64,000 nucleotides of DNA from Phoronis australis. Lineage: Eukaryota; Animalia; Phoronida. Shown one piece after another: positions 18,116 through 61,153 of this stretch. Position numbers and translations under genes: made by a program. The notes below the pieces were generated by a model, which worked only from the letters and a program-made list of their open reading frames with translations, ran no database searches and was not told the origin of the DNA. Every line of letters starts with the position of its first letter. Within the stretch, counting starts at the first letter, position 1. Location: NCBI GenBank assembly GCA_002633005.1, contig NMRA01000159.1:124001-188000 (forward strand). Reading direction: 5' to 3'.

Positions 18116-20689
18116 CATCAAAATGGGGTTTAGCATCCCTTTAAATACGGCCTGGTCACAGGTAATCTGCTTGAGGTAGCTTTAGTCACTAGGTTATAAT
18201 ATGTGTGATAAATACGATGAAAGCGGATTGACAGTCGTTCGTTTAATTAAACACGCTCAGTCGGTTATAAGTTAAAATTCAATGTTCGCTGTTTAGATGA
18301 ACGAGGTGTATTTTATAGAACATTATGTAATTCGTCTACAAAAATCTTTATACGTCTTTCGATTTTATAATTACCTGCTTGCTTACTTGACTGCCAATAT
18401 ATCAAATTGATTCCGATAAATATTCCAGTAGACGAATGAAAACAGTGTCAAATAATCTTTTACTACAGATATGTGGGACGCTACCTATACCGGAAACGCA
18501 CGATGTCGGGAAGCGGGAGACGCCGGTAAGTTCAAAGTCGTGAGGAAATATTTAAAAACATTAAGTTGTGAAAAGTAATGAATGTTGATAGAAAAGACTG
18601 GATGTTATATGAAGTATAAGCCTTTAATGCACTGTATTCGATTGGTATTTAGCCTGGGAGCCAGACTGTGTCTAAAGATTAGGTATGGTTCACCTCACAG
18701 CGTGGGAACTATTGGCGGCAACAGGAGATTGGTCTCGACACAGCTTTTCGTTTTACACTTTCGAAAATTTGATTTATTTTCTTTTGTAACAAACTTTCTA
18801 TCGAAAATTTTAAAAAATGCGTTTCTACCTCATTCCAATGTAAAGTTAAGGAAATTTCTTATTAGAAATGCTATTTTTGCCTTTCCCCTGTTACTATGGA
18901 AACGCACGTCTCTAGCACAAAAGTTCGGCAGCCACTGTTTTTGTGGCATCAGACGGTTTCTGATGAACTACGTTTGGTACTCGTCAACAACTGCCACCCT
19001 GAAGGACTAACCAACCCGAATACTAAAGCACGTCTATGCATCTGGCTCACTCTTCTGCATCGTACGCACACAAATCAAAACTTTATTATTCAATGAAGCC
19101 TTCATTTACCTCACTTACTGCTTTATTACAAATCGTGAATCGTAATTTGACCTTTTTTAACTACATGTACTCTTTTTAGATATTCTCAAAGTCTGTGTAT
19201 TTAGCAAAGCATTATAGATACTGTATAATAGTGACGTAGAATGTGAAAAACAGACTAAATGACATTATTCATAGTAATTCTGTACCACTGAAACAGGCGT
19301 CAAACTATTCACGAAGTATTTGTACGATTTGTTCTTCAAGGTTTTGATTTTCTAGTGATGCCAAAGCATTTTTACTTCAGTTTCAAATTTCATGAAAACG
19401 ATCTGTCATCTGCTCGTCACTTTGTCAATTTTACTCCCACAAGGCAAAGCACGTTTCCTTATGTGGTATGGCAAGACACAGACGTAACACATTTCCCTTA
19501 TATGGAAAATGCAACCTTTGACTTCGGAACAATGGCAATTATATACTTAAAAAATTAGGTAATTCTTTAAGCGCATGCGCGCATATACAATATCAGGGAC
19601 GGAGAATTTGAAAACTATTCGGGTGAAAGAGTTTATATTTCGTCTTTGTTTCAAAAATAGTGAATCTGGCGATTTTTTTCTGGAAATTCTTGCAATATTC
19701 AAAGTGAATAATTCTCGCGTTAGCATCCCCAGGAGGTAGATTCCCCACCACCAGTTGAAACTGTATTTTTACGAGTTTTCGCCCTCCGTGCCTCCTTAAC
19801 GCATTAAAAGTGCACATTTTATGAAAGTAAGAAGCCTTTAAAAGCGATTTTTGACTTGACACTGAATTGCCATTAATTACATTATGTGACCATGGTTTTT
19901 TAATAAAATTCAGAAAAAAGAAGGTACGTTGATAGCAAAACAGATGGTATAGACATCTCGACTGAACTCCATTTGTTATTAATGTTCAAGATGAAGTCTC
20001 AAGCCGTTGCCACAGATTTCCTAATTTTTCATTTATTTTTTGTTGTATGCAATTATAATTTGTTCATGAAAATCATAAAAGTCACCCCTCATGCAAAAGT
20101 GGACCATCCCGAACAGGATATCTAAAGGCGTCTTAGAGAGCAACACATAAACCTTAGTAGCCTGTGAATACGATCAACCATTTGGTCTTTTAGACAGGAT
20201 CCTACACAACCTGCACAATTTTCGAATGTTTCTTTTCAAATGTATTCATGTTTCAATGATTCATTATTATTTTCAGTATTTGAATTCAAAGATTTAAAAT
20301 AAGCTTTATTATTTCAAATTCGTATACTTTCTTTAACTGTATTCTCTTGCTGTATACTGTTGTTTTGTATAGTGTGGCGGATAATTTTAATTGAGTGTCA
20401 CTGTAAATTTTTAAGTATATCAATAAGATAACGATGACAATACCAAAACGAATACTAATAACGATATATAATTTTAAATTAGTCACATTACTCCTTCTGA
20501 TTTCTTTAATACATGTACAAGTACATGTCCCTACGTTTCGTGATATAACCAACCTGCGATATTGATAATCATCCTGGACTTGTGCAGACAAAATCGAGGC
20601 ACATAATTTGATAAACCCGCGTGTTCAGCAGTTTCGCCATGGAGATATTCGCGTACACGTGCCAGTTCCCACGTGATTTGGAAAGCAAG

Positions 20690-24695: not shown

Positions 24696-24944
24696 TTGAT
24701 GTCGTCATGTCGTACATTTTCTGCATTCGAGTCTGCTCGGACACGCCAACTAAACGGCTTTCTTTTTTCAGATTGTGAAATAAAAGCTATTGAAAGAGAT
24801 TATTTGTGTGCTTTGATTCATTCTGCGTCACTGAGTCATCACTGAAAGCCATGAAAGCTCATAATATAGTTTCAGCTGAAAAAACAAGACAGCTCGCGTT
24901 ATAATTTTCCCGTACGGGACACGGAAATATGTGCCATGTGCAGC

Positions 24945-29622: not shown

Positions 29623-32600
29623 GCACACCCAGTGACGATGATGCGAATGCGAAAGCAAGACCCCGCCGTTCAGGCTCTGGGTGTCTACAGAGATGTTCCC
29701 ATTTATGCAGATGTCAAGAAGGGCCCCGAGGACAACTATCTGCGCATAGGCGGCTTGCCAACCGTAGACTACAATCCTGTACCAGGCTCCTTCTTGTATG
29801 ATCCCGACAACCAAACTCAGCAATTTGATTCCGTGCATTGTTTTGCAGTTGTCAGAAATGTAAGTATTCAAACTCGCGCCTCGCAAATTAGGTGTATAAT
29901 GAGATCGGACCTCATTATACAGCTAATTTGCGTCCCGCCTTCTCTTTGAGTGACACCCGAGGCAGTCTGGTGGGTGGAGGGGCCAATGCCAATTGATTGA
30001 TTTCACGAATGATTCTGTATCTATTACTGATTCCTCGATGGTTGCTTGCGTGTCCGCTAGGGGAAAGGTAGGCAGCAGTACACATTTTATCACTGCTTGA
30101 TATAACCTTGGAAGTATTGGTAAGCTTTACAACACAGAAAGAAAGTGGCCGACTGTGAACGATATTTAGCCTTCTCAATTACATCTTTGCGAACCAAGTT
30201 TTCTCTCTACAGTATCAATAACACCAGAAAGACCGAGTACAGTTATCTGCAACCTGGGCAGTTTATGAGCTTGACATCGGATCGGTAGCCGAAAAGGACA
30301 CTCTAGCAGCAACGTAAACAAAAATCAGCTACAGTTGAAAAATGGACACCGAAAAGGCACAACCACAACTTTCTGATCACATTTCTTGAACGCATCCCAA
30401 TTAATCACCGATTGGTCTGTACAACAGACCCACCACAAACTATATCTACATTTACACTTCCCCCATCAGTCAAGCCGGTTGGGTATAAAGCGTTACTTGT
30501 TGATAATTCGACCAGCCAATCAGAAACGCTGGTGTAAAAATTTTTCCCTAGGGAAATTAAATGATACTTGCGTGTCCCCTTCCCCCTAGCGGACGCGCAG
30601 GGAACCAGCGAGTTACTGATTCTACCGAAAAAACTTGCTTTAAGCCAATATGTATCAATTTCTATTCACAACAGCTGCCGTTTGCACTTCTTCTTTTAAA
30701 GCAGCCCGATGACTTTAACGTTCTTCCTCGGTGAGTGATTTCATGAACTCTTATCTGTGGAAGTGTTTTGGCAATTTCTGGATCATGGTTCTATGCACAA
30801 CAGTACATAACAGTGGTTGTACATACCAGATGGGTACAGGGTACCACAAAACAACATTAAACAACGGGTACCATATGAGTGCGACAGAACGAATCGTTGC
30901 TAGTAAATGACAGATGGGTACACGATACCAGATGGGTATTGACCGATTACCTACCAGTGGAGGAGTCTGCCGCCTACTTGCCTTAAGCGTAGTTTGGAGA
31001 CTCCTGAAAGTGGCGATAACTGAGTACGATCCCTTATGAAAGAAATTTGATAGTAACGAACACACTTTAACCTATCGATTATTCATGGTTTCAGATTGTG
31101 ACGATGTTTCAACAAGCGTTGAATAATCTGCCGTCGAAGTACAAAACCGAAACCTTCCAATGGCAATGGGGCAGTGAAGACCCCCTAACTATTATACCAA
31201 GGTTCAGAGAGGAGAGCGAGAACCCCTTCACACTGAATGCGGTTTACCTACGCGCCACCAAGAGACTTGTTTTTGATGTTTGGGCGCCGCCAAACGGGGC
31301 TAAGAAAGTTTACCTGAGCCAGTCTTACGATATCGTCGCACACGAGGCTGCACACGCAATATTGGACGGTCTCAAGCCGAATTACTTGTTTTGGGCATTT
31401 TTAGGTCATATTGAAACTGGTACGTATATTCATTTTCAGTTGATTGACATCTGAACAATTTGTGTCTGCACATGCTGGTTCCCTGCGTGCCGCAAGGCGG
31501 TAGCCAGCACGCAGGTATCACTTAATTTTCCTCTGGAATTTTTTTTACACCGGCGTTTCTGATTGGCTGGTCAAATTCTCAACATGCAGCGCTTTACGCA
31601 AACAAACTGGCATGACTGATGGAGCAAATGTAAATGTGTATTCATGCAGTATGAATAACACATTGGTTAAATCGGCCATGTATTTAATGTACATATGCGC
31701 TTCAAGCAAGCGCCTATTAAACATTACTGCAGAAACGAAATAGTTGCTGCTACACCACTTGCATGACAAGGCTAAAAATTGTTCATAGTCCGCAATGTTT
31801 CTTGTTTTCATGCAAACGAATGACCAACCAATGCCAAAGCGCGTGCTACTGCGTGATACCTGCGTGCTAGTAGGCACCTAGGGAACCAGTGAAATTCACT
31901 TCAATACGTCGTCGGTCTCCTGTGTGACTAAACTTTCTAAAAACCTTGAAAATTTGCACAAATTTAACGCTCTTTTTCCATAAAATTAGCAATTAAAACT
32001 CACGTTGTGCACGTATGCGAGATAATCTCAGAGTCTTCACGTTATTACCACATGTAAACCAATGAGCTATACCAGAAGATAGCTAATTGGTATAACGATC
32101 CTGAAGGCGAAAATGCAGGTCAACACTGTGACGTAGTAAGCAACTAATGCTTACCTCAGACGTTCGCATCTATGACGTGTAGCAGACGTTCTCTGTTATC
32201 CACCGTCGGTACCCGAGTAACACATGGACACTGGTTCTAATTGAAGCCGGTAGAAAAGTGTAGACTGAGGCGGCGTGGTGAAACGTTTTTTCGAAACACG
32301 AATTGGCGTCTTTATGAAACCGCTCTGAGGTGGTGGCCTGTTACAGCTATTAATTATTAAAATCTCTTGGTCTATTTACACCAACCTCTTGTCTATTTAC
32401 CCTGTCACGACGTTTCGGTCGGTCTATTCTCTGGCCATCGTCAGGTGTTCCCGCGTTCTTAGAAGAACGAGCACGGATATGTGGTACACTCTGCCTCGGA
32501 AAAAATCACACCGTTAGTGTCCCACATATCCGTGCTCGTTCTTCTAAGAACGCGGGAACACCTGACGATGGCCTGAGAATAGACCGACCGAAACGTCGTG

Positions 32601-35600
32601 ACAGTGTAAATAGACAAGAGGTCGGAGAAAACAGACCAAGAGATTTAAATAATAGTTGTAACGAGTAGAAACACGAAATGGCGCATGACACAAATCAAGA
32701 GTTACGGATAAAATGCATTCCATCACTGACAAAAGAACATCATAGATCTAAGCAAGTTACACATTCAAATAGTCTACATTTCGAACACGACTCGAAAGCG
32801 TTTGTGACTAGAGACCACTGCTTGGTTAAACTCGGTCTGACATCCCCAAATCACAAGTACTGAATACATGCAGTTATGAGCACATGATGATTTGTTCATG
32901 TACAAGTGGTCACAATAACTACACTGATGAGTATGCATGTATCTCAGAGTCATTGTTTATTGCCTATGTTAGATTAAATTGGTTTCCAGAAACAATTGCT
33001 TTCTGACTTAAGTAAAATAGACCATGACGGCAGCCTGTTTCGTGAAAGCAACTGAATTTAGACGTAAGACGGAAATTTGGTCTCACGCTTCACAAATTTA
33101 AATAATCCTCAAATTTCACTTTAAGGAAGTGAATATATATTAATAACTTACAGTCACTGTTATAATTTGTATAGTATCTAGGTTGTGAGGTGCTAATATC
33201 TACACGACTAAATCTGTTTTTAGTAATTTTCAATGAAAGCGTAAAACCAAATTCCTGTATAAGTCTTAGGTCACTACGTGAAATAGAGTCCTGGTCTGTC
33301 TATTTAACATGAGATACACCCCTATCTTATTAGTTGGTCCTTTCTTATGGGTGGTACAGATTTAATTAGTAAATTGCCAATAGGCTGAGACCAGTGCTGC
33401 AGTGGTAAAATTAGAGGTAAGTAGGCGCCCAAAGCCCATCGTATCGCCTTCAGCGATGAATTTCAAAAGTGCATTGAACTCGCAAAACCTGACTCACAAA
33501 CATGGTGGCCTACTTTTAGACTCACGAGGGGGTATTTGAATAGTCTGCAGTGGCGGATCTTGGATGTCGGAGAAAGAGGGTCCAACCTCACATATTCGAA
33601 GGAAAAGGTCCGCGTGCATCCCAAGCGGTTTCTGAAGGGGGCACATTACTGTATAAAGGAAAATAGGAGTGTAACTCCCAGAAACGATATGCTGGTGGCG
33701 ATTTTAGTCACCTGTGGGGTGTGTCCTCTGGGCCCTTCGCCACCCCCTCCCCTTATCCACCCCATGGTGTGACACCATAACTGTTTTTTGTCTTAAAGTA
33801 TTAATAAAAATTCCATCACTCGGTGAGCATACCTGGTGGTCGCTCGCGCTGAAATATTCGGCAACAATGCTGCCGTCACCATGCCGTAGCCAGTGCCGTT
33901 AGCTATCGTATAGGGACTACGCCCTACTATACCGTCACTTTCGGCGCATAGACGCCACGTTAAAATGTAAAAAGGTGGGTGGCTGCAACTACGTGCGCTT
34001 ACGTCCCACTATGCCGTAACTTACGGTGGGTAGGCGGTACATTAAAAAGCAAAAAGGTGGTTGGCTGCACCTGCAGTACGTGCGACTACGCCCCACTACA
34101 GCACTGGCTGAGACGTACAATGAACCATTCCTTTAAGAGGAGCGGGAAGCCTTCACGTGCCTAAAGGACTAATATGACATACTGGGAAATCCTTATTAGT
34201 AGTCAACTGAGGCTGACTCGTTAGTCTATCACTGTGAAAAACACACTAACTCAATGGGGCGGTCCCAGATTACGCACCGACACCTGAGTATCACTGTATT
34301 AAAAGTACAATGCTGCAACATCCGTCAAGCATTTGTTTGGCCTCGTTTTTGCGTCACTGGACTTTCTCATATTTGTTGGTGCATTGTTTTTTCTATTTTT
34401 ATTCTATACTGAATTAACTGCACTCGACCTTCCGAACCAGGAAAGTTTTACTGCTGTGCTTTGGACTGCAATGGCAGAAATTTGGATAAACTTGAGAAGG
34501 ATCCGTTGATGCTATATTTCCGACATGATTCACAGAATCAGCCGGACATTTCTAAAACAAAGCCATTGTAACCAACTCACTAGGACAAAGGAAATCTATA
34601 GGTGACCGCCCTGTTCATATCCTGCAAATACAGCAATAACAACACTGGACAGGTCCTTGAACTAAACAAGTTTTTATTTATTTTTAATTTCCTTAGCTGC
34701 TCTGCACGAGTCTTTCGCCGATTTGTCCGTTCTTCTCTCCCTGCTTTGGCAATTCGACGTTGTTGAGACCATCATGGCGGAGTCACGAGGTGGAGAAACA
34801 CTACGCCAGGGGTTCTGGAGTATTTTAGGGGAGCACTTTGGCAAAGAAGTTTTTAACCGCGATCCTGCAACCCAAGGAATAAGGAATCTCAACAATTCAT
34901 TAACTGTGAGTTCTTAAAGCCCGACACAACACCCCATTTGTTGTTATGTGAAAGTGGATTTGCTGACCGGTGATCACAGCAAAAGTTATTCTGTATCAGC
35001 TTGATTTTGACGTCACATACGATGACGTATGGGACCTAAATAGGTCAAAACCGTTGACCTTTGTAAGCAGTCACGTGCTTTAGATTTTGTAAAAAACATA
35101 GAAGTATGATTTAGATCGTGCTCAGTTTTTTAATTGCGCATTGTTATTCTGTATTGTTTGCTCTATATTCGTTCACCTTGATAAGTTCGGACAAAAGATC
35201 GGAAATCAGTATTAGTTGCCATAGCAATGTTTCCCCTTTTTGATTCAATTATATGGTATGCCATTGGAAAATTCGTTTATTTGTCTTTCGAACAATACCA
35301 CTTGACATTACAAATTCGTTTCAGATAAAAATTACACATCAGAACCTGATGTGAAAACACACGTTGATTTTTGGTGTAGTTTACTCCTCACAGTGGCAGA
35401 TGTTGGCACAGTGCTCGTGTACCAGCATGCCAAAGTTCTGAAATTAAGGAGGCTTTTAGTGAAAATAAAAGATATATCTATGTTATGTTTACCAAGTATC
35501 AGGATGGTGCTAATCATGTATATTGCTGCTTTCATTTACAAGGATTAAATTTCTTTGGTAACTTTTAAATGGACTAATGCATAGAACTATGTATTATGTA

Positions 35601-36338
35601 AATGCTAGGTGATCACAGAATCTTGTTTTGTTCACGAAAGCAATGACCAGATATTCAGAATCACATTATTGTTTTTTCTTCTAAAAATCACGACTTTTTA
35701 CTGATGTCACCATTTTTCCAGAAACACGAAACTTGGCGGCGCCACAATAATAGTGAATATGTTTTGGTCTAATAGTAAGATTTAAATTCTCTAAAATTTG
35801 AATAAATCTTTTATCAAGAAAGAAGTATTGTTGAGAGACTCGAAACACTGTTTGCAATGCAATACAATACAATACAATACGATACGATACGATACAATAT
35901 AGTACAATGCAATACAATACAATGCAATAATTATCATCTTTCGTATTTTAGGTTGAGGACATTCCTCAAGGGGCGTTCGACGGTTTTGGTGTGGTGTTTA
36001 CGTCCGCCGTATTCGACTCAATAGTGGACACTTTTGAGTTGGAGCAAAACGTAAACGTTGAAAATCATTCGGCCACTCTCTATAATATCGGTCAAGATTT
36101 TTTGGACGTTATACTGAGAAGCTTTATTTCCATGAAAGTAAGTGTGACTGAAGCACCTTCTCTAGAGAAAATGGCCTTAAAAGTTATTCGTCACACGAAG
36201 AACAAGCAAAGAAAAAACATTTTAAGGAACAACTTCGAAAAACGGCTTATCACAACGCCTAAGCGTAGAAGTGGCAAGAAGAAGAAAAAGATGCCTCCGT
36301 CTTTTTGCCGAACAATGAGGCAGAAAGAACAAACTTAG
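29623..36338 (+). CDS. Gene B: gluzincin zinc metallopeptidase, bacterial M4/M36-like (~380 aa; 5' end uncertain)
   Basis: join(29623 [or ATG 29638]..29859,31095..31419,34697..34905,35952..36338). GT-AG introns with phases 0/1/0 give a continuous frame: MRMRKQDP...FDSVHCFAVVRN|IVTMFQQAL...FQWQWG...SQSYDIVAHEAAHAILDGLKP...ET|AALHESFADL...GIRNLNNSLT|VEDIPQG...KKKKKMPPSFCRTM. HExxH is at 31341-31355 and the third-ligand Glu lies in exon 3. Confidence 0.88.
31474..31890. mobile_element. MITE-like element in intron 2 of gene B
   Basis: Inverted ends CTGGTTCCCT..GCACGCAGGTATCAC / GTGATACCTGCGTGC..AGGGAACCAG. A similar end (CAGGGAACCAG) occurs at ~30600. Confidence 0.55.
32341..32661. mobile_element. 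Inverted-repeat Penelope-like (pLTR) fragment containing two minimal hammerhead ribozyme motifs
   Basis: Arms 32341-32490 and 32516-32661 are near-perfect reverse complements around a 25-nt loop. Each arm carries cac-CTGACGA-tggcc..gacc-GAAAC-GTC-gtg. Confidence 0.75.
32558..32600 (+). ncRNA. Minimal type I hammerhead ribozyme motif (Penelope-type); antisense twin at ~32406-32447
   Basis: CAC CTGACGA TGGCCTGAGAATAGACCGACC GAAA C GTC GTG: conserved CUGANGA and GAAA boxes, GUC cleavage triplet, stem I CAC/GTG, and palindromic ACGU replacing stem III. Confidence 0.65.
33392..34106. mobile_element. Internally deleted copy of the same hAT element, in intron 2 of gene B
   Basis: Termini CAGTGCTGCAGTGG...CCACTACAGCACTG with a perfect 8-bp TSD GCTGAGAC (33384-91 / 34107-14). 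Both ends are homologous to 26225-27645. Confidence 0.88.
35856..35927. repeat. (AATAC/GATAC)n pentanucleotide microsatellite just before the last exon of gene B
   Basis: Visible directly in the sequence. Confidence 0.9.
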
Positions 36339-39300
36339 TTTGGAACCACGCAGTCCGTAATGGTGACATCTAATAGCTCTACTGACGAGTGGAAGAGGCA
36401 CAACCCGTCTGCTATTTTGTTACGTCATTAGTGGTTCTTTACTGGGCTGCGTTCTGAAACGCAAAAGTGAGACACTCGCGCGACACCCGCGGTCAGAAGT
36501 CTAGGCTTGTCGAACGAAAGTAGCGTGTTTATTTACAACATTCACTCGTAATTTAACTATCCAGCCTCGGTCACCGATTAATGATCTCGGTGGCCACCAT
36601 TTTGCATTAAAAGTTGGCAAATAGCAGGTCAAATTTTTTTACACATGTGTAATACAAGTAATATACTGCTACATTTGTTTCGTTACATTTTACACAGTCA
36701 CTAATCATTAGGACAAAGGTCATGTCGTCCTTTTTATGTGCCCGCGCCAAATTCCCCAAACATGTTCCCGTCCTGTCAGCGTCGACTAATATATTGACGT
36801 CATCTTTGGTAAACAATAATCATATCTCCACAGCCTCCGGACTCGCGTTACTTGAGGTCGCTGACTGGCGCTTTATGTATCAAACAAACCATGGGCAACT
36901 TAACTGGCATCGTATCAGATCTTAGTTGATATTCACAAACGTGGAGACTACCTAGATAAGAAAATAAATGATACCACTTTCACACACACGCATCTTGCCT
37001 TTCGCCACTACTATAGCTGTCATTCTCGTGCGAGTCCGCGGGCATTTACAGGTATAAGGGCAACGCAGTCTACATTTTCACTCATTGCCAAATGATTAGG
37101 GCTGACATACGTGGTACTTTACAGCTACTAGATGAGTTCAAGAACCCGCAAAATTGCATAACAAATGTGCGTGAATTTGCATATATTCTCTAATTTGAGA
37201 CTTACGATCGCTGGGGAAATACACAAGAGTTCCTTCCTAACTCGATCGCCCGACCTACAGGTCGAGCGCCTGACTTTTAAAGGACACCTGACTCTTATTT
37301 TGAGTGCCCGACCTATAACTCGAGCGCCTGATTTATAAGTTGAGTTGCTGTGCTTGACCTTGGTATTCTGCTTAAACACGTGAGGAAACTTGACAAGTTC
37401 ACTCATATAATTACGTTCACGTTGAAACAATATGCACTGCACTAAATCAAATTACATGTTAATAAAATAACGTAAATTTTAACGAATCCTTCTTCAAATA
37501 TTGTCGATCTTAGTCACCACACAGTAATTGATTTAATCATGCACATATTCCTCCGATTCTTTGACACAAGTTACGATAAAGGAGTAAGTGGGTGATCATG
37601 AGGCCTGTAATTACAATAATTCTTTACTCTGAACAAAAAAATTCCCCAGATTGCCCAAATGAATATTCAATTCCAAGTTCACGCATACGCGATCTTGGGA
37701 TTAAGTAGGACGGTTCAAGTTCACGCACAGCTGAGTTACATTATAAAGTATGTGAAAGAGCTCACATCAATACAGCAATCTGGGCGCTAGAGTTCTTGAA
37801 AATTTGAATCCCATGCTCGGGAGGTCTACTACATTATGCAATAAATATCAGGACGTGGACTAATTCAGTTTACACTGACGTCAGTAGGTCCCTGCGGACG
37901 GCTGGAAACGACTGACAATTGAAAAGTCTAATTCCAAGTTAAAGTATGCGACTTTGACTTGACTGGGACGTTAAAAAGTATTTAATATCTAATATGTTCA
38001 ACCCGAAATATTTAACAAAAGGACTGTCGCACAACCACTGTCGACTGTTCTAGACGACTGTTCAATGGTGAAATGACTCCTCCGACCCGGGCATGCTTTT
38101 GGAAAACTGGAGCAAATAGTCAAAAGAAAGCGGAAACATAAAAATATTGATTCACTTAAACAGATAACGTTTTTCCCGATTGCACACGTCAAGTACCAAC
38201 AAAAACAACACTACTCATACATAACTATCATGATCACATGACCAATCGCGACTCACAGTCTCACTGGTTTGAAAGGTGTTGCAGAAATCTTATACATGGT
38301 GACCCAAAAATGTTTACAATTCTTAAATGAGCAACAAGATACAGTTTTACTAGAAAGTAACGGTGTTTTTCTTATTCCTGGGACCCTAAGGTTAATTTTG
38401 AAGTGCGTGGAATTGTGAAAAAGTTCTACAGAGGACTCTGGAAAGCACAGAAGGCGGCCAGGGCGGGTATCAAGTTTTCAACGAAGAATTGAATCAAAGT
38501 GCATAGATGAGAAGCGAGCTGTCATTTCACGTACGCAGGGAATGATCAGCTCAGAAAGTTGTAGATGATCACAAAACTGAGCGGCGTTTAACCTGCCACA
38601 GACATATTCGAACATACGGTAACAATGTATGCGCGCCCTCTGAAATCCGATTGGAAAACATTATGAATTATAGTCATCCAGCACGACGCTATTCTGGAGC
38701 AGAATATGACATTACCTGGCAAGTGAGCTATTCTTGTGCCAGGGGAAAATGTTCAAGATTGTCTTTTGGACAGCAGACGATTAATTCGGGAAGGAGCAGC
38801 AGCATCTGCAACCGGAAGTCTAGGTGTTGACAGTGACATTTGCAGCGCCTTCATCACTGCAAGGGGGCGCTGCGAAGAAAAGTAGTTCTATTTTATCTAC
38901 GAACAGGACTAACAGAAATCGTGTTTCAAAAACAGATGACTGAAATTTACCTTGATATAGTACTTGTACTTTCTCACTGGAAAAACAAGGGGCTGGAGAA
39001 TGACAAACAACTGATGACGTTTATTACGGAAGAATATTGATATGACCAAAACGCACCTGTTTTTTGAGTCGCTGGTGCAGTGTTTTTTAGTTGCTTTCTT
39101 TCTCAAAAAGGCAACTCCACCTAAGACGAGTAAAAATGATGCGGGATTTTGTTTACTCATCGCTTAACAAATTGTTATATTTCAAACCTTACTCGCCTTT
39201 GAACGTGCCTTTGTGCAGCTGTCCAAAAACACCAAACCTTGACTGGAATTTATGCATGCGGGCGTTTTTGTTCAAGGGAGTGGCCAAGACCAACTTTGAG

Positions 39301-41689
39301 TTGTTTGGGTGCAATACTCAGGAAATTTATTGGACGGTTAAAGTTCTTGACGACCACTTTTTTGTACTACTCATAATATGTTCCTAAAAAGCTTCCATAA
39401 TATATATTGAATTCGTTGAAACTGAGCTACGTACAATGTTAAAAAGCAACTAACCTATTTATAGAAGTGCAACCGAACTACAAATCTGTATTGTGATTCC
39501 AGTTGTCAGTTTATTAACAGTATTTAAATGCGTGACCCAGACCAGCTTGTCGAAGGTGTACACACAGGCGCTCGCTTAAGTTAACTAGACACAGGTTTAG
39601 TACACAGTCGAGGAGACTGTGTTGGTAGCACTACAACAACACAATGCAACGTACTGTGGCAGTAATCTGACTAAAGCACGATTTCTTTTGATTTAATTCA
39701 ATAAACAAATGACATACGATTCCTGGTTTGAAATAACAGAGGGGTGGCGTGAAAATAAACTCCTTCAGGAATGTACAATGTCATTCATTATGACCATTTT
39801 CAGAAAATTGGGGTGAAATCATGTCCTGATAAGTGTCACCCACGCACGTATTTAAAGGACACCTAACTAATCGGGACAACAAAATCGTGTTTTCAGCTCA
39901 GTTCATCCCTTTGAACATCAGCGCATAGTTAATTCATCCCAATTATTTATTAATTCTAACATATAAAAATTGTCAAGCCGTGAAGAACAACGCTAATTTA
40001 TGTCAGTTGTTCCGCTAAATACAGTGGCAGATGCGTTACAAATCCGTTAGGTATATGAAAACCTTCGGGTACCTCAGTAAATATATCGTCAAACAATTTT
40101 AGACTATTCTGTATCAAAATTTGTTGAATACACGACATTTGTCGTTATTAACAATCTTTATTCCGTTCCGTAGTATCCTCGGAACAAAGTTCGACACTCA
40201 ACATAACATTGTCTCAACCCACGAAAGTGTGATTTACATTCGAAATAAGCACCGAACGCTATAAGTACACCACCAAGCTTTATATGTTACCTAAGATGAA
40301 AAAGTAAGATGAGATGTTCTCCAAAAAGGTCATTGTCGTAACATTGACATTGGTATATGAAATAAAGGAATAAACATGATTTATACCACAATATCAGCCT
40401 CGAATGGCCAATACAACCGTGTAATAACCCATTTAGTTATCTCACTAGTGAGACAACATTTTGGCGGGAATCGAGGCCGGTTTCAAACCCAGTCCGGATC
40501 CTCTTCATACGTGTAGACCAAAGCTAAGAACATTTCAAAAGTGTGGATTTACTTTGCTGTTCAGTTTTTGATATGACCTAAATGTGATTTTAAACACACT
40601 GAGTAACCCTTAAATTTGATTGAATAAGATATGTGTCCCTTATTAATGAAGAACATAACACGTGATAGTTTTCGTGTGAATCTCCAGACAATTTTGTACG
40701 CCAGCAGTCATCAGTCCCCGGTCTCTTGTCTCAAGTGTGGAATGATGAACTGTATGTATGTGTAAATTTCTTAAATCGTTTGCGCATTTGTGTCTTAGTT
40801 AAATCACAAATATTGTGTTTTTCCATCACTTTTCATCACGAGCTCCTCTTATTTTTCAATATTGTATTTGAAAACGATGACTTTATTTGAATGGAAATAA
40901 ATAGGGACGTTCCATGAAAAGACCCCTATATTTATTTTCAATAATGTTGGGAATTTAACCAGGTGTTTAGCGTTGGTGTGTATCAAAGTTAAAAGTTGAT
41001 TTAGTAATGAAGGCAGAAAATCACAGAAAGTTCAGTCAATGTCTGCACACAAACGCAGTGAAAAATTAAGGAACATAGTTGAGTTCATATGTGGGCCTGT
41101 TTCATGCAACCGGCCAAGGTCAACTATTTCCCCACACCAACCATTCCCCTCCAGAGATGGCGCTGTCAAACAGGCCTCTGGCTAGTGACTACCTGCTCGG
41201 ACTTTAATACAGAAATAAACATTCAAAAACGGTCATTACAAGTTGGTTTCGTCTCACTCCCTTTGCTGGCATTGGCGCGGTTTCAAAAGTTTAAGTCTTC
41301 TGACAAAGGTCCAACGACCGTCATGAGGGAACAGTTCAAAGAACATACCCCGCTCTTTATGAAGACGCGATCCTAAGTTAAGAACGTGAGACGGAGAGAT
41401 CGCGTGATCATGTGAAACTGTCCTGGAGCTCGGCCCCACCTATTCATCTGCATATAAGGAAGTTTAACATTTCAACATTTCTAATTTTTTAACAATAATG
41501 TTTATGATGACGATGACGGTGTCGTATTAGGAAACAGCGATAGAAACAGTAAAAGTAAAATAAGATGCAATAATGACACAAACGAGTCATAACATTAAGA
41601 ATAGCAACAGTGATAAAATTGTTATCAAACAGTACTAAAACTAGGGTATTAGTAACTGCGACAGTACTGCATATGATGATAACAATAGT

Positions 41690-42960
41690 AGACAAAAGGT
41701 TCTCTGTAAAGCATTAAAATCCACCGCTTGCCAATTTAAGCTAGTCTGCCTCTAATGAGGGGTAAAATACAACCTGATATTGCAAAAGTTAAAAGAAAAT
41801 CGTAGCACAGATATAACAAGTGGCTGGCAAAACCAGTTTGGAGATACGTCATGACTCTAACTGCGTGACGCTGTTGTTGTGTGGTTGAAAATTTTCAATC
41901 AAAAACGTCTTATACTTAATAGGTTGTCGTAGTCGTTACGACCCACTTCCTCTTAATAATAAAATGTGTGTGAATAAATACGAAGTCAAATTTTAACCGA
42001 ATCAGTGAGCGTTGTCCTGATGCTCCTTATAATATTACTGGCTGTGCACCCTTATGTATGTGTAAAGTTGCGCTTGTATATAAAGTGTGTATCCGCGAGA
42101 AGCTTACTCTTAACCAGTATCTGTCTTCTGAACACCGGCTGCTCTTTCACAATGGGGAATATCTTCTCAGGGGTAAGAATTCTTATGCTGTTGTATATGT
42201 TACAATATACCTATTTACGATTTGGCATTCTTTGTGGATTGTAAAGAAGGTATCTGCTTGTTTATTAATGTTTATTACGAAAAATACAATGTACAGTAAT
42301 ACAAGTTAAGCCCTGAATGCATTAGAAAGCATGATATCTGATTGTGATTAATGGACTTCCTCCAGCTGCTATTAGAGAGTCGTTTTCCACTTTCATCATG
42401 TAATGGAGCACAATTCGTATCCATGTTGACGGTCACACATATTTATGTAAATGATTTCCTATGAATAATTAGTTTTAAAATGATAGTCAAGACTATTCTG
42501 CCTTTCTGTGTGAACCCATTGCAATGCTATCCTTTGCCGGTTCCCGAGTCGAAATGAAGCAGACGGTTTCGAATGTGGCACTGTTTAAGGACATTACATT
42601 GCAAAACACGAAAGTTGTTCCTAAACGGTTGACAGTGAATTTGTCATTTTGACTAAAGCTTACTCCGAAGCACAGCCCCTGTTCATTTTCGGGATTCAAT
42701 GGCCATGGCAACATCTGCTCTTTTAATTTTGAATATTCGTTCTTGAGCCACTTCTACGTGTTCATAAATGTATGCGGGTATTCTTATGATTTAACCTGGT
42801 TCTGTCGCACCTTTATAAGGGTTAGTTACACTGATTTTTGGATTTTTGATTATTATGATTTTTTTGTATCGTCTCAACCTTTGATTCTTCATTTTGGTAA
42901 TAAAATGAAAAGTAGAAAGTCTTAATTATGACCCCATCTGTGAAAGTTCTCTGTCCTGTA
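41690..42960 (-). mobile_element. Highly degenerate Penelope-like retroelement (RT + GIY-YIG) remnant
   Basis: Minus-strand fragments in the expected order: LLPK (FYLLPKIHK-like), IPAYI (LPSYIKDT-like), IC.T.NMDTNCAP (QxxGxAMGTxxAP-like), KIFP...FRRQILVKSKL, and KRWILML. Many stops and frameshifts. Confidence 0.5.
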
Positions 42961-43883
42961 ACACTGCCCAGCACACTCGAATGGATAACGACGCCGATAA
43001 ATTTTAAACACACTGGCCAATATCAGGACACTAAACAAGGAACTTTCAGTTGTCAGAATGAACAACAGGCCAGTTATCCAAATTAATTTGGTTCGAGGGT
43101 ACCCTGGACATTTGAGGAAAGCTCAACGTTTAGCTCAGTGTACACAAGCAGGTAAGTTAGTCACACATAGTTTACAGTAGAACCTTCCTTCTGGTTTGTT
43201 TTTACTATGTACAGTAAAACTGATGGTAACAGATGGCGACAAGTTCAGAACAATCCTATTACAGTTGTGCCCCCTAGTGGCAATTTTAGTTTTCACGTTT
43301 GCCTTTGTATCTTTAGAATGCATTGATGGATTTTCATGAAATTTGGTAGAGGAGAAAACTTTGTCTTCCTATTTTCGAACGGGTTCAACGTATTCCGCGC
43401 CTCTTAGGGGCAATTTTTTAATTTGAGTTCGTTTTTAGCATACGCCTCTTTATCCGTCAATTGAATTTTTAATGAAAAATTTAAAAATCAACAACCACGG
43501 TTTCTACTTCCTTAATACTAAATTAAAGAACAATAAACCTGTTTTTATTTAAAATTGTGAAATATTGTACAATTAACAACCCTGCTCATACATATAGGTA
43601 AAGACATTATCACGTCACACAGTGCCACCTTGTGTTACTGGCTGCTTCCCATGGTTTGAGGTGGATGCAATTTGTCCACAATCGTCACGGACTGTTGCTC
43701 AAAGCGTTATTGGCGTTCGGAAACCAGAAAACAGCAATTTACTAACCCAGTCAAGTCCTGTGGTAACGATTAGGTCTGCTGGCAGCGGTAGATTAAAGTG
43801 TCTAGTATCCATTTCAAATGTCTGCAGTGTAGACCGAATAGCATCTACACGATTTGCATAGCGTGATTAATGTGATTTTGTAG

Positions 43884-46800
43884 GGGGACCTTCCACTGCC
43901 CACGACGCTGATGAGGCTACGGAAACAAGATCCGTCAGTTGACGCCGTCAACAGCTTCAGTCCGGTTGTCGTATATTCGGAAGTGACGGAAGGACCCGAA
44001 GATAGCTCCGTCAAAATAGCCGGACTTGACCCAATCGGCTATAAACCAGAACCTTTAACTTTTTTCTACAACCCAATGACTGAGACGGAACAGTTTGACG
44101 CGGTACACTGCTTTGCAGTGGTAAGAAATGTACGTATAGTATGGGAAGTATAGACGGAAATTATAGAATGCAAAATAAGCAAACTAAGCACTTCCATTTA
44201 ATGTTACATTATTGATGCATTTTAAGTGGACTTGGCATCTAGGTGAAATGGACCATCCTCTTCCCTGTAGTTTTGACAGCTATATAACTGAGCTCACCTG
44301 TATCCTAAGCTTGCTTAGATTAGAAGTGTTTTGTGCAATTGATGAGAACTGATAAGTTCGTTTACTTATTGTGTGAAGTCCTGCTCAGCTTATGAAAGGA
44401 TGAGCCGAGTCAAGCCGAGTCAAGCCGAGTCAAGCCGAGTTAAGCCGAAGTGACCCTGGCAGAGAATAAGTACAGCGTCCGCGGAAATTAATTCCAATCT
44501 GAATAACTAACAATTTGATGCCAATTTTATACAAAACATGAAGCATGTGAATCAAATGTAAGTGTTTTGACAGAAGACAGTTTTATTGCACCATTAACAA
44601 CGTCGGGCTGTGGAAACAATTACACGGTTGCGCCCCTAAATTTCAGCTAATGTACAACCCTCTAAACTAGTACAGGTAAATGCAACGGAGGACTTTTTTC
44701 AGTGTGACGGCTAGATTCTTTTAATACCTGCGCAAAGTTTCAATGTGTAAAACCGGAAGTGTGTTCATGGCTTATGGAAAGAAAATTAGCGAATTTATTC
44801 CCATAGGGCTTCCGTCCAGTCGTTTCGGCAGCACTCATTTTATTACACACTATTAAAGTATTCGACATTCACGGGAGGGTGGTCTCGTATGGTCTCGCCA
44901 AACTGGCGAGAAATTGTTACTCGCTTTGCCAAAAAAATCTTCCATAACTGTTCTAAATCATCACCATTTCCACTGTGTAGGTAAAAACAATGTTCGACCA
45001 GGCGCTAAATCAGATGGGCCAAACCTTTGAATGGCAGTGGGGGTCCTCGCCCCCTCTGACGGTGGTGCCGAGATTCAGAGAAGAAAGCCAAAATCCTTTC
45101 GCCATTAACGCCCGATATGATCGACGAAACAAGAGGCTTATATTTGACGTCTGGGCACCCTCCCCCGAAGAAAAAGTTTACCTCAGCCAGTCGTACGACA
45201 TCGTGGCTCACGAGGTCGGGCACGCCATCTTGGACGGTTTAGTGCCCGAGTACTTGGACTCAGCGCGGATGGGTGACTTTGAGACTGGTAGGTGTTCATA
45301 GGAAATTGGTACTTCGGTTTTTCGTTCAGGCTTTTTTACAAGATTTCATAGATCCCGGGGTTGTCAAACTGGCACAAATATTGGAGTACAAACTCGAAAC
45401 TTTTAGCCTTAGGATCATCAACTTTAAACTAGGATTATATAATTATTTACGTCCTAAGACATCATGTACTCGAGCAAAATAGAACATCTTCCGTTCACAC
45501 AAAAGAAGAATGCCAAAAATAATTTGGAGTAAGAATATTACTACCGGGCCCTTGTCTTACCCAATGACGTTACTGCTACCAACATTTAGTAAGAGTTGAA
45601 AGATGACGTGGGATCTTCGGAGCAGTCAGTTGCTAGAAAGGTTGTGTGACTTTTTAAAGCCACTTCACTTACGCGTCAATGCTCCGTATGCTCTGGTAGC
45701 TGTCACGTGAGATCGATTTTGCAAGGTTAGGCGGCGTGTAGTTCAAGTCGTTTTGGATAGGTAAGCGGGAGGACCTGCAGTTTTAGGAAATGTTCACCTA
45801 TCCATCGATTGATTAGTGTGACGCCATTTTGACATTTTAGATCTATTCAAAGAAAAATAAAAATGACAAAATTAAAAACAATAATAATAATTAGGCCACA
45901 TTTACACAGCGCTGTACATTACTAAGCACTTCGAAAGTTATGACCTGGCCACGGACTTGGTATGTAATCGTAATCCTTCTGAGCCCCCAGGAACATACAA
46001 TTTTCCAGTGATATATATTTATTCAAGAATACACAGAGAATACAAGGAAAATAATGACAAACCTAGAAATCACATACAATTGGTACGTGCAGCCGTTGTC
46101 GTAGCAAACCGATTAATCCAAATCTACAATTTTGTAAAAAAATAAAGTGCTTAATTGCCCCCGTGGTTATCTGAATCGGAAAAAAGACCTGCAAAATTTT
46201 TGAAATTGTGATGCGACTTTGCATTACTATTCCTATTTGTGGTCAAAATCACGTCATATTAGTGGCAGATACGTCATCACTATACAATGGTCATTGAACT
46301 CGAAGATACTGCTAAAGCCATTTTACCTTCAAAGAGACGACCATGACCTTTGAGCGTAGTAACGTAACTGTAATACGTGCGCGTTACAATTTGACACAAT
46401 TTCTTGAAAAAGTATTTATTAATTTTCTATCCGCAGGTGGCCTACACGAGTCTTTTGGTGATTTGACCGTCATATTCTCGCTTATGTGGCAGTTTGACGT
46501 GGTCGAGTCAATTATGACGGAGTCTCGAGGGGGTGTCACGTTGATTCAAGGATTTTGGAACATCATGGGTGAACACTTTGCCGAGAAGGTATTCGGCAGA
46601 GACCCGGAGACGCAAGGCATCAGAAACCTAAACAGCAGTTTGTCAGTGAGTTGAAAATCGGGACTTTTTCGTACTTTCAAACCAACGAACTCGCCCTCAT
46701 CCCTTTCCTGTTTAATTCTAAGTAAAGTGGTCTTAGGACGCTTAACTAAAAAGTGAAAGATATCGCACGCCTTTAACAGGCAGTTTCTGGCAATTCGGAA

Positions 46801-47818
46801 AAGAGGAATAAGCAAACGTCTTGCTTCCTCCACCAATATCTCCTCTACACACTTCACGGTTGACCTCACGCACGATACCGTCAGTATGGTCGTGATAGGC
46901 AACAATTTTAACGACTTTTTTGGTTAAATTACGATTTTCTAGTTAAACCCAAAAAGTTGCTTCCTCTCTTTACCCCAACCCACGGTGACACGTGCGCTCA
47001 GCGACTAAAAACGCCAACCCACATCAATTTTGTTCAAGGTCTCGTGTTTCATTTTGAAAGCTGCACAAAGGCACGTGAGGACGAGAGAGCAATTATTCGA
47101 ATCCCCATAATTCATAAAGCAATGAGTAAAAACATAATTTTTGCTCGTCTCAGGTGCAAAAGTGACCAACTAAATAAATAAAGTTTTGACTTCTATATAA
47201 AAAGTTACACATATTTTTTCTTTTATGACAGTTTTATTTTGATGCACGTCGTGTTTTCTATGAAACAAGAAACCAAATTAGGGGTGCCACCGACTTCGAT
47301 TTTGAGCTATTTTTGTTTTAACACTCATGACAAGAATGCAAAACTTGGGATCACAGTTTCTCCGCTGCGTGACGTAATACTATGTTTTTGTTGGTATTGT
47401 TTTCTTACGTATAAAGTGGCCTAATTACACTGAATAAATCACTACTATATGTATAGGGATAGTGAAAAAAATTAAGTTGATTTGAACAATCTAAGACAGT
47501 ATCTTATTTGATTAAAAATTGCCGCTTAAATTGTCACACCTTACACATCAGCGACCACAAAGACACGTACACTCGAACATGTTGAAGCTATGGCATCTTC
47601 TACTTCTGGAACGCTTCGGTGACCATTCACAGGCGCGGATAAAACTACACTGGGTGTAGTCCGCGACAGAGAGCACTCCTAGTATATGGCCGCGAAGCAG
47701 AGACGGGAATGCCGACAGCATGGCACCCTTCTTCATTATATTTTTAGCAGGCAAGCTTACAATTTCTGCATACATGGTTATCCGACGGTAAGAAATGTTT
47801 GCAACACACGCACACACA

Positions 47819-47869
<51 letters not shown>

Positions 47870-48623
47870 GACAGTTTTGCACTGTTTTAACGGTGGCGTG
47901 AACGAGCAACACTGCATTATTGACACGAACGAACCACCTGTGACGGATTTGTCACCTCGAGCTCATGGCTCTTGTATCCCTTTAAGCAAACAACTTCCAA
48001 GCTTACTGAATAAGACCCAAAATAACCTTCTTACAAGCTGACGTACACAATGACGCCTCCGATGCCAAAGACGGTCCGAAGTGCACGTAAACAAAGATTA
48101 CTGGACATGATTCGGGCTACGAACAGTATTTCAGGAGTGACACATGCATAACTAATTAATTTAAGATTATCTAAGATGACCTGGAAATCGCAAGTTAACT
48201 AAAATGACAGTAAAAACAGTTGCTTTCTCCTAAAATGCAATTCAATGTTTGTTTTAGGTTGAGCAAATACCAACGGGCGCTGTTGATGGCCTCGGATTTG
48301 TGTTCACGTCATCAATCTTTGCTGCCCTCGTTGACGTGTTCTTGATGCGGAAAAATGTGAAGTATGAAAATCCCGCCTTCACTCTTTATCAACTGGCAAA
48401 AGAGTTTCTTGGACTGACTCTCATCAGTTTTACATGTGCACCTCGTCCTCGATGCACACTGGAACAAATGGCAAGGCAGTTCATGAATAACACTGGCGAC
48501 GAGCAAGTGAAAACAGCACTCTACAACCATTTCGTGAAGAGAGACATACTATCGGAAACACGTCACTCCATGGGGAAGAAGAAGATGCCCCCAAGCTTCT
48601 GCAAAAGTTTTGCAGATGACTGA
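43884..48623 (+). CDS. Gene C: tandem paralog of gene B, gluzincin zinc metallopeptidase (~370 aa; 5' end uncertain)
   Basis: join(43884 [or ATG 43911]..44129,44981..45287,46437..46645,48258..48623). Intron positions and phases match gene B: MRLRKQDPSV...FDAVHCFAVVRN|VKTMFDQAL...FEWQWG...SQSYDIVAHEVGHAILDGLVP...ET|GGLHESFGDLTVIF...GIRNLNSSLS|VEQIPTG...GKKKMPPSFCKSF. HExxH is at 45209-45223. Confidence 0.88.
44403..44448. repeat. (AAGCCGAGTC)n 10-bp tandem repeat
   Basis: 4-5 units, in intron 1 of gene C. Confidence 0.9.
47804..47870. repeat. (GCAC)n/(CA)n microsatellite
   Basis: Visible directly, in intron 3 of gene C. Confidence 0.9.
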
Positions 48624-50943
48624 CATTCAGACACAATGAGAACCAGTTTGATGTCCGTTATTCAGTGGAGAAAAAATGTTTATCAAAATGTGGCACGTTA
48701 TATTTGACTATTACTCAGAAAGGAGCAAGATATCGCAATCATTAACAGTTCAATTATTTCTGACGAGTTAAGCGAACGACAACACACATCTGTAAATATA
48801 AATGCGGACATAGTGACAGGGTAAAGCAGAAGTACGCATAGTCGAGTTTGTGTTTTTGATCAGCTCAATCAATAAGTGAGAAAAATGGGTTATTAATATT
48901 GTTTAATGGGAATGCAGAAGCCTGTGCTTTCAAATACAGAATCTGTACGTTCAACAACTGAAAACATGCATTGAGCAACTAATCTGTCGGCGTTTCGTTA
49001 CAGTATTATGACACCGTATCATTGGCATATGCAAAAAGTCATATGTTTACGTAGTGTGATCATTCAACGGCGTCAGCCCATTGGCGCATTTTCGGAAAAT
49101 TTCAAAAAGTACGCCCACGGGCGTATGTTTGGTAACTGTTTGCATGTTTTGAAAAAATGTTGTATGGTTTTAAAATACATATGAGATACGTTTTGACTTC
49201 AAAACGTGTTTATTTCGGAAAGACACGATGTTTTGGGATCAAAACTTCACTCAAATGACTATCATTTAGCGAGATATTGGGTAACGTCCTTGTCAACTAA
49301 CCGTATTACTACTGTTTTTGCTGAATGCAAAATAAGCATAGACCAATAAAATATTTAGTGGTGATATACAATAAAACGTGTTTATTTCAAATACTTTAAA
49401 AAATACGCCCCCTCCCTTCCGAAAGAACATCTGGGCGAATATTCAGTTTCATTTCATTTGTCTGAAAGATCTCTTTTCAAATATCCTCCATGGGCCTATT
49501 TTCGGAAATTCCCGGTGGCAATTTTCGGCGGAAAAAGAGTAGCTTGTGGAGTGGCTTATGAGCCTTGAAGCAAGCCAGGAACGGATTTGTTGCAGGTAAA
49601 TCCCTGCAGCAAACAGAAAATTCACGGTCTTCTGAGAGACGTATATGCTATTTATGACTTAGTTTCTTGCATAGCACTTTCCGGGGTTAGTTGTTACTAA
49701 GACTACATCCCATATCGTTGAGAATGCCAGTGGTGGATTTAGAGGGGGCCAAGAGGGTCATAACCCCCCTAAAATTCTCCAAGATTCCACTTGGCAGTTC
49801 GGGAGTGCACGGACAAACTCCTTGCTAATACTCTGCCGTGCCCCCCCCGACTCAAAATCCCGGATCCACCCCTGAATTTGTACCGTGAATTTAGTGGCTC
49901 GAGTTCGCCAGGCAAGAACTGGGAATCACAGACAAACAACATCAACCCGATGCGATCAAACAACATAAACCTGATGCTCTAAAAATCGCCATGCACAAGG
50001 GGAAACAATTAGAGTGCCATTTGTAGTGCTGTGTACTGTTTATCGTATTATGCTTCCACCCTGTGTCCGCTTTTCTGCCTCCGGTTTATAAATACAAACG
50101 CTCGACACTCATAATGACTTTGTGGCGTAAGATTTGTAGTACTTCTAGCCAGACGGCTATCGTCAAAAAGACCTCAAAATTTCACATTACCCGGGTACAT
50201 CTCACGTCACCTCGTGGTGAAATTGTTTTCGACATGTAGAGCTAACAACCGGACGGACCGCATGCAAAATCTGGGAGTTTACCGACACTCATCTTGCCCG
50301 TTGTAGCTGTTTAAGTGAAACAGGTAATTTTGTGTGGCTTTTGTAAGAATTAAAAGTATGTCGTTGACAAAAAAACATTACGCTCGTTAGCCTCGTTCCA
50401 TCCTCCAGCTGGTAGTCCGCTTCGCACGATATGAATATAGAGTCAAGTTCCTAACTGCAATGACTTCCTTCTTTGGAAAGTTTCGCGAATTCGCTAGCCT
50501 AATAGATGTCGCGTCAGTGCTGCTCATTTACTACGAACGATCACCAGTCGTAACCAGTCACGGTCTATGAGTTAAATTTGCTCCACCCCCCAAAATCGCA
50601 GAAATCTTTGTTTACGATTGCCAAAACATGCATTTTGATCACCTAATTCATTAAACATGTACACTGCACACATTCATCAAAAAAATCTACTCCTGACAAT
50701 TTAACCGACAGAGCGAGTTTCGTACGATAAACTCACTCTTCATTAAAAATGCCTTTCTGATGTCGATTTTAAAAAGAAGCAGCATTGTTCAAACTATTTG
50801 CAAAAATGTTCTAATGCTTTTATCCCATATGCGTTGAATCAATCGAGTGCAATACGGCCATGTGACATTGTTTTCCGTATTCACATCCCGCACTACTTCA
50901 ACAATGCCCTCTGACATGGAAAGTTCTAAAGGTAGGTCTATGT

Positions 50944-61112: not shown

Positions 61113-61128
61113 ATTCAAATATGAATAA

Positions 61129-61153
61129 TGACGTCATCAATACGTTGACGTCA
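61129..61153. promoter_or_regulatory. Tandem CRE palindromes (TGACGTCA x2) immediately upstream of gene D
   Basis: Perfect TGACGTCA at 61129-61136 and 61146-61153, 17-41 nt upstream of the ATG at 61112. Confidence 0.4.

Follow-up and report, generated by a model that had tools for sequence, protein, structure and literature searches.

Endopeptidases with the thermolysin or fungalysin fold are regarded as microbial. The question raised by one stretch of the genome of the phoronid Phoronis australis (64,000 nucleotides, positions 124,001 to 188,000 of the forward strand of contig NMRA01000159.1, assembly GCA_002633005.1; hereafter the window) is how two genes of this type came to lie there in tandem, interrupted by introns. 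The initial annotation, made from the letters of the window, proposed an ancient transfer from a bacterium to an animal, followed by intron gain and duplication. The two genes, here called A and B, are best read as expressed, spliced and anciently duplicated M36/M4-like genes without propeptide, whose ancestor likely came from a marine bacterium and whose products are predicted to be slow or narrow-specificity zinc endopeptidases. The probability of this reading is put at roughly 0.55.

Both genes are intact and expressed. Six-frame translation of the window recovers every motif quoted in the initial annotation twice, on the plus strand and in identical order (Table 1). After joining at GT-AG, the frames run uninterrupted for 380 residues in A (from the Met at 29638) and 382 residues in B. 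RNA data comprised three raw-read runs of one study (X2, X3 and X4, about 18-19% of each being read) and the assembled contigs of a second study. All seven predicted GT-AG junctions, three in A and four in B, are spanned in each of the three runs and by single contigs, and the junction reads lie on the strand expected for plus-strand transcripts of both genes. The transcript of A ends in poly(A) after 36671, and the two coding differences noted between genome and RNA in B are both synonymous. Expression of both genes peaks in X4 (for instance, 78 reads at the first junction of A versus 9 and 16). The two spliced genes and their internal exons therefore stand as first described; their 5′ limits do not, as both genes reach farther upstream. 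A tblastn search found no third copy within the window.

Antisense reads cover the third-ligand exon of A at window positions 34692-34991, with a bin depth of about 35 in X2/X3 and 0.5 in X4, where gene A is highest. Many of these molecules start or stop at the limits of the interval. The signal possibly represents an antisense transcript anti-correlated with gene A.

The pair is old. The A and B proteins are 58% identical (212 of 363 aligned positions). Nei-Gojobori counts give a proportion of synonymous differences (pS) of 0.89, which is saturated, and a nonsynonymous divergence (dN) of 0.34. When introns and flanks were compared, no alignable DNA was found between the two loci outside two exons. 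Saturated synonymous sites and the lack of alignable intron or flank DNA indicate an old duplication with purifying selection on both copies. This agrees with the earlier proposal that intact frames were kept by selection despite heavy divergence, and is contrary to a dN to synonymous divergence (dS) ratio near 1. Three introns are common to A and B in position and phase (0, 1 and 0), consistent with the proposed order of events in which intron gain preceded duplication. The best database matches of A and B are prokaryote-type proteins, as would be expected of bacterial contamination, mis-assembly or decaying pseudogenes. Any of these is all but excluded, given that RNA of two studies shows multi-kb GT-AG introns spliced out, that the reads are stranded and a poly(A) tail is present, that frames are open with dN far below dS and synonymous RNA differences in the coding sequence, and that a flanking gene is spliced too.

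A search with the zinc-motif exon of B led to two proteins of 380 residues, one of which retrieved 1483 homologues among 3316 candidates. They constitute a family of uncharacterised, mainly prokaryotic proteins of about 380 residues, with which A and B align end to end and collinearly at 33-37% identity (E from about 1e-55 to 1e-73 against a local database). The family motifs are kept in order in A and B, and each copy retains 29 of 37 highly conserved columns. Twelve genome loci with a family member belong to Alpha- and Gammaproteobacteria, Bacteroidota and Acidobacteria; further members are cyanobacterial or come from Lokiarchaeum. The bacterial genes are solitary and start just before the KQDP motif, and no conserved gene neighbourhood was found in 11 loci compared by the starts of their open reading frames. 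This supports the initial annotation in placing the genes in an uncharacterised M4/M36-like group of bacterial type.

Single exons of A and B score 14.8 and 15.7 bits against PF01447 (cut-off 22.4), and homologues fall on both sides of the cut-off. PF02128 matched none of eight exons (E up to 1) or of 15 homologues (E up to 0.01), PF02868 gave no match, NCBIfam gave nothing above cut-off, and sequence searches of PDB chains gave nothing meaningful. Viral contigs hold no real relative (none for the family member P0132, and one weak 32-residue match for a B exon). Look-alike clusters in the ESM Atlas are bacterial or phage; as these are clusters of at least 50, they carry no evidence on eukaryotes. 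A literature search of titles and abstract openings, with subscription papers and MEROPS/CDD outside it, found no description of the family or its animal members. The hemichordate genome paper does not mention the family in the passages and two supplementary files searched, and its supplementary note may bear on this (PMC4729200).

Some members are fused to other domains (P0144, P0154, P0136, P0252, P0157 and P0317), the partners being DUF4332/HhH, DyP peroxidase, hemocyanin-type, M28 peptidase with HAD, sigma-70 or PF01223 domains. Three others, P0125, P0352 and P0227, lack the motif Glu and are likely pseudo-peptidases; two of the three belong to an animal-type clade and have Met-Gly starts.

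The fold was modelled on the bacterial member P0094, 36% identical end to end to A and B, with AlphaFold2 (AF2; predicted local distance difference test score, pLDDT, 90; predicted template modelling score, pTM, 0.92). An AF2 model of one exon by itself had low confidence (pLDDT 51) and was left unused. The top four structural matches of the P0094 model are all M36 mature domains (Z 25.9-27.0, root-mean-square deviation 2.9-3.0 Å, about 300 aligned residues). M4 enzymes give Z 18.6-21 and M1 aminopeptidases far lower values (Z about 11); in the structural comparison suggested at the outset, here run on the bacterial homologue, M36 gave Z 26-27 and M4 gave Z 20-21. By homology with P0094, A and B are predicted to have the thermolysin-like two-lobe fold. 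The family begins where the mature M36 enzyme begins and so lacks a propeptide; it is a stand-alone mature domain, intermediate between M36 and M4 and filed here in neither.

The catalytic core is largely conserved. A and B retain both His and the Glu of the zinc motif (HEAAH in A, HEVGH in B), the third-ligand Glu, the Asp that follows it, a conserved Arg and an edge-strand Asn. The third-ligand Glu lies at +26 from the second His, with 25 residues between them, and the Asp four residues after the Glu, so that the spacing and the gluzincin signature are as initially reported. One position departs from the family: in a column where 75 of 88 rows carry His, 10 Tyr and one Gln, Asp occurs in two rows, A and B. 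Judged by motif order rather than by residue-level superposition, this His is probably the equivalent of thermolysin His231, which stabilises the transition state according to the text available (PMC6222841). Conserved neighbours on the same helix are changed in A and B (S to G, G to S and Y to F), and both copies retain a Tyr that lies 10 residues past the second His. This Tyr may help to stabilise the oxyanion, the role of Tyr157 in thermolysin. Losing the oxyanion His strongly lowers activity in thermolysin-like enzymes, and no measurement was found in the literature searched. A and B would accordingly combine working zinc sites with weakened oxyanion stabilisation.

The Asp in both copies, together with the altered helix neighbours, could also mark pseudo-peptidases that bind zinc and hold peptides or partners without cutting them, as in the descent of IRBP from S41 peptidases, a precedent for a peptidase losing catalysis in the portion of the source available (PMC10120077). 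The animal-type members P0125 and P0352, without the motif Glu, point the same way. For A and B this is possible but less likely: despite saturated synonymous divergence, neither copy has lost a zinc ligand, the general-base Glu, the Asp after the third ligand, the conserved Arg or the edge-strand Asn, and the Tyr past the second His is retained as well. The two proteins are more plausibly read as peptidases of reduced activity.

The N-termini of the two copies differ. The RNA-verified start of B lies 20 residues before KQDP and has no hydrophobic segment. Its first exon begins Met-Gly-x-x-x-Ser, a myristoylation-type start, the pattern being Met-Gly followed by a small residue at position 6. 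With such a start and no signal peptide, the secreted roles first suggested (digestion or matrix remodelling) fit B poorly. For A, an RNA contig carries 173 unplaced bases before 29622; the 30 of them that were compared match 18495-18524, a match unique in the window with a donor next to it. The 3′ end of this upstream exon (donor after 18525) is supported, and its 5′ end may follow either of two models. In one, the exon is contiguous, begins near 18352 and holds ATG 18436; in the other, it measures 57 nt, starts in phase 0 at 18469 and is joined by splicing to sequence farther upstream. For the latter, GC content rises from 32% to 60% at 18469 and the acceptor ranks 63rd of 3362. Exon 18469-18525 also resembles the start of the second exon of B (partly by eye). 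A candidate exon at 11575-11628, hydrophobic and running from ATG to donor (donor rank 66 of 3961), would give A a signal peptide ahead of a dibasic site, as a prediction only. Among the phase-0 GT[AG]AG candidates upstream in the window, none provides a Met-Gly first exon for A. An FTP/PepSY or protealysin propeptide has no Pfam match in the exons or homologues; the start of B is too near KQDP, and the N-terminus of A is too short for FTP/PepSY under either 5′ model.

As the upstream exon of A ends at 18525, a separate gene at 20629-24747 sits within an intron of A. It lies on the same (plus) strand, and its four exons encode a protein of 346 residues. The start looks like a signal peptide, the linker is mucin-like and rich in Thr and Pro, and the C-terminal domain is rich in Cys; no Pfam match is convincing. 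It is spliced in X2 and X3 and has zero junction reads in X4.

Whether the ancestor was acquired from a bacterium depends on the other members outside prokaryotes. No close orthologue of A or B was found: the best of 223 matches for the B zinc-motif exon among 1.84 billion representatives has E 8.5e-12, and an A/B-weighted profile ranked no orthologue on top among candidates limited by the word index. As a control for this profile, B reaches 426 bits and none of 120 bacterial-core proteins exceeds 364, so that a 58%-identical paralogue outranks them all. The family is present in other animal contexts. The profile search listed a member in the annelid Owenia fusiformis, CAH1772378.1 (62-Mb record), which retains the His and has 31% identity to A and B. 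It also enlarged a clade of unnamed proteins, in many of which the start is Met-Gly-(x)-Cys. A relative of one of these proteins is encoded on contig L014; its gene is intronless and lies beside a spliced calbindin/secretagogin-like gene and a ubiquitin-conjugating enzyme (UBC)-SOCS-box gene, neighbours that identify the contig as animal-type. The latter gene (L014:11142-11792, minus strand) is itself an intronless ubiquitin-conjugating enzyme fused to a C-terminal SOCS box, an unusual pairing. In L016, a family exon is flanked by splice sites; its two introns stand at positions other than those of A and B, and none interrupts it at the site that A and B use ahead of the third ligand. The Owenia and L014 members are about 30-33% identical to A and B, and prokaryote-type best matches are closer (35-37%).

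Trees were drawn from 87 non-redundant near-full-length sequences, reduced to subsets of 56 and 44 rows picked by hand. For the 44-row set, 14 of the 56 rows were dropped (near-duplicates and long branches) and two added; its tree used a mixture model and a quick search, with support from the Shimodaira-Hasegawa-like approximate likelihood ratio test (SH-aLRT) only. There, Owenia falls within a prokaryotic clade (SH-aLRT 96), the L014 clade stands apart (99), and A+B (100) sit on a stem of 1.71 among unnamed sequences (83). A constrained arrangement of A+B as sister to Owenia matches the free tree only via a zero-length branch and is not evidence.

Separate transfers are the probable account, although the trees do not decide: the family ranges broadly among prokaryotes and is patchy in animals, its intron positions are not shared between the animal groups, and A and B are more similar to bacterial proteins. 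The competing account is a single very early entry into animals or eukaryotes, or inheritance from the prokaryotic ancestors of eukaryotes, followed by loss in most lineages, with A/B, Owenia and the L014 clade as survivors. Members in an annelid, on an animal-type contig, in a eukaryote-looking transcript and in Lokiarchaeum all fit it, as do the Met-Gly starts common to B and many L014-clade proteins. It must, however, accommodate best trees that split the three animal groups under both models, constrained single-animal-clade trees that are 17-19 log-likelihood units worse, A and B that are nearer to bacterial proteins than to animal members, and the lack of introns common to A/B and L016 or L014. 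It would also need very many losses, as an animal name appears on one of 120 listed profile matches, an argument limited by most of those matches being unnamed. Such ancient inheritance with loss is possible, and less likely than separate transfers.

Several observations weigh against acquisition from a bacterium, or against parts of the reading built on it. One clade of all animal-type sequences is not rejected by the approximately unbiased test (p-AU 0.194 under LG+G4, 0.191 under the mixture model), so the vertically inherited animal clade that the initial annotation named as contrary evidence is disfavoured by the best trees without being excluded statistically. Other trees shifted A+B next to the L014 clade or elsewhere, and the stem is so long and the position so unstable that neither a donor nor a direction of transfer emerges. 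Against named bacteria the Alien Index comes to 18-20, and against the best overall match to 35-43, a microbial-versus-animal gap of 8-9 and 15-19 orders of magnitude (the latter with the best unnamed match); the usual cut-off is 45. The GC-rich, eukaryote-looking member L015, a transcript, suggests that protists carry the family too. Myristoylation-type starts occur in B and in six of 14 L014-clade proteins checked (Met-Gly in eight), versus none of 120 bacterial-core proteins, and could reflect shared ancestry rather than convergence. Finally, the fold and the His231 equivalence rest on a bacterial homologue model and motif order. Of the original proposal, spliced genes under purifying selection, the gluzincin signature, the place in a mainly prokaryotic family and intron gain ahead of duplication stand, and the presence of members in other animals, the sub-threshold Alien Index and the unrejected single clade count against it. 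Transfer of the A/B ancestor remains likely, not proven.

Under the preferred reading, an intronless bacterial gene would have entered the lineage and then changed rapidly (a stem of 1.7 substitutions per site). Along this stem the oxyanion His would have been lost, and short insertions and three introns gained, with tandem duplication afterwards. Two His and one Glu would hold zinc, and the motif Glu would activate water as in thermolysin. Loss of the oxyanion His would leave the transition state less stabilised, and enzymes of this kind would be expected to process certain substrates to a limited extent, not to digest protein in bulk. The copies would have diverged mainly at the N-terminus, B being N-myristoylated on the cytosolic face of membranes and A possibly secreted, with a longer N-terminus that includes the dibasic site. 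The remaining animal members would likely be separate acquisitions. A bolder version is improbable: that marine animals domesticated this bacterial M36/M4-like family at least three separate times and repeatedly retargeted it to membranes by N-terminal lipidation, and that here it lost the oxyanion His and was duplicated, B becoming myristoylated and cytosolic and A secreted and processed at its dibasic site, both as animal endopeptidases of the thermolysin fold with new active-site chemistry.

Table 1. Motifs and exons of genes A and B in the window (position 1 is its first letter; read counts are given in the order X2/X3/X4).
Feature	Position	Strand	Basis
KQDP motif	A 29653, B 43923	+	six-frame translation
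FD(S/A)VH motif	A 29824, B 44094	+	six-frame translation
WQWG motif	A 31161, B 45032	+	six-frame translation
HExxH motif	A 31341, B 45209	+	six-frame translation
HESF motif	A 34705, B 46445	+	six-frame translation
GIRN motif	A 34876, B 46616	+	six-frame translation
Gene A, coding exons as joined	29623-29859, 31095-31419, 34697-34905, 35952-36338	+	GT-AG joining
Gene B, coding exons as joined	42152-42172, 43884-44129, 44981-45287, 46437-46645, 48258-48623	+	GT-AG joining
Gene A, candidate signal-peptide exon (prediction)	11575..11628	+	one of 10 phase-0 ATG-to-donor candidates upstream; hydrophobic; may be another gene's
Gene A, upstream coding exon (5′ end at 18469 or about 18352)	18469..18525	+	RNA contig 5′ end matches; in frame with next exon; acceptor score and GC step
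Gene A, exon with KQDP and FDSVH	29623..29859	+	junction 29859-31095: 9/16/78 reads
Gene A, exon with WQWG, edge-strand NAxY and HEAAH zinc motif	31095..31419	+	junction to 34697: 4/11/65 reads
Gene A, exon with third zinc ligand (HESFAD) and conserved Arg (GIRN)	34697..34905	+	junction to 35952: 1/7/39 reads
Gene A, last exon: His-to-Asp site, C-terminal helices, stop 36338, poly(A) after 36671	35952..36671	+	
Gene B, first exon: 5′ untranslated region (UTR) and 7 codons from ATG 42152, Met-Gly-x-x-x-Ser	42004..42172	+	junction to 43884: 3/10/21 reads; contig piece 42004-42171
Gene B, exon with KQDP and FDAVH	43884..44129	+	junction to 44981: 4/19/43 reads
Gene B, exon with HEVGH zinc motif	44981..45287	+	junction to 46437: 6/10/31 reads
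Gene B, exon with third zinc ligand (HESFGD) and GIRN	46437..46645	+	junction to 48258: 4/7/14 reads
Gene B, last exon: His-to-Asp site, stop 48623, 3′ UTR to at least about 49307	48258..49307	+	

Elsewhere in the window, a transposon-like remnant at 6439-6804 carries a THAP domain on the minus strand (6522-6767, E 1.7e-7). The THAP domain is largely animal, and the remnant supports an animal host, which its multi-kb introns and poly(A) tail show to be a eukaryote. Pfam scans of window open reading frames (30 in one set, 150 in another) gave no other host marker, and none for a phylum. A short minus-strand frame at 26923-27354 resembles the end of a hAT transposase and has no Pfam match. An open frame of 1299 codons at 57237-61133 (minus strand) has long acidic internal repeats and a basic tail containing Cys-Cys, with no Pfam match above cut-off.

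A and B are expressed, selected and intron-bearing animal members of an undescribed branch of the thermolysin/fungalysin fold, and this family has turned up in two or more further animal contexts. With dense sampling and a comparison of intron positions, it offers a tractable case for weighing repeated transfer against differential loss, and the pair itself is a natural experiment on the role of the oxyanion His.

The closest relatives are members of the KQDP family. The hypothetical protein P0007 of Motiliproteus sp. MSK22-1 and Owenia fusiformis CAH1772378.1 are collinear with A and B at 31-37% identity. Unlike these relatives, A and B are interrupted by introns, carry three short insertions and putative N-terminal targeting extensions, and have Asp in place of the His. 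Among characterised enzymes, the mature domain of M36 fungalysins (PDB 7qp3, 4k90, 7qfy and 7z6t) is the best structural match of the homologue model and has HExxH and a downstream Glu in common with A and B. Sequence identity is 14-16%, however, PF02128 does not match, the family has no propeptide, B has no signal peptide, and the oxyanion His is replaced in A and B.

The M4 enzymes thermolysin, aureolysin, vibriolysin and protealysin have the same fold and the common order edge strand, HExxH, Glu, Arg and His, and PF01447 is passed by the homologue P0001 (26.8 bits) and by Owenia P0309 (28.6 bits; cut-off 22.4). In contrast to M4, the third ligand of A and B is at +26 rather than about +20 (146 to 166 in thermolysin, in the text available; PMC6222841), Asp occupies the presumed His231 position, and there is no FTP/PepSY or protealysin propeptide and no PF02868 or PDB-chain match. 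M4 protealysin-like proteases are recorded in bacteria, fungi and archaea in the part of the source at hand (PMC6778150).

The nearest parallel in history is the bacterial S41 peptidase from which vertebrate IRBP and the homologues in amphioxus derive, for which the available text describes intron gain, duplication, new N-terminal targeting and an altered catalytic site, as for A and B (PMC10120077). According to the same text, S41/IRBP genes were acquired several times independently, with separate origins that are resolved on trees, unlike here. IRBP belongs to a different peptidase clan and has lost its catalytic serine, whereas A and B retain the core catalytic Glu. Animal-domesticated bacterial peptidases are thus already known from IRBP, and A and B represent a new case with a twist rather than a new principle.

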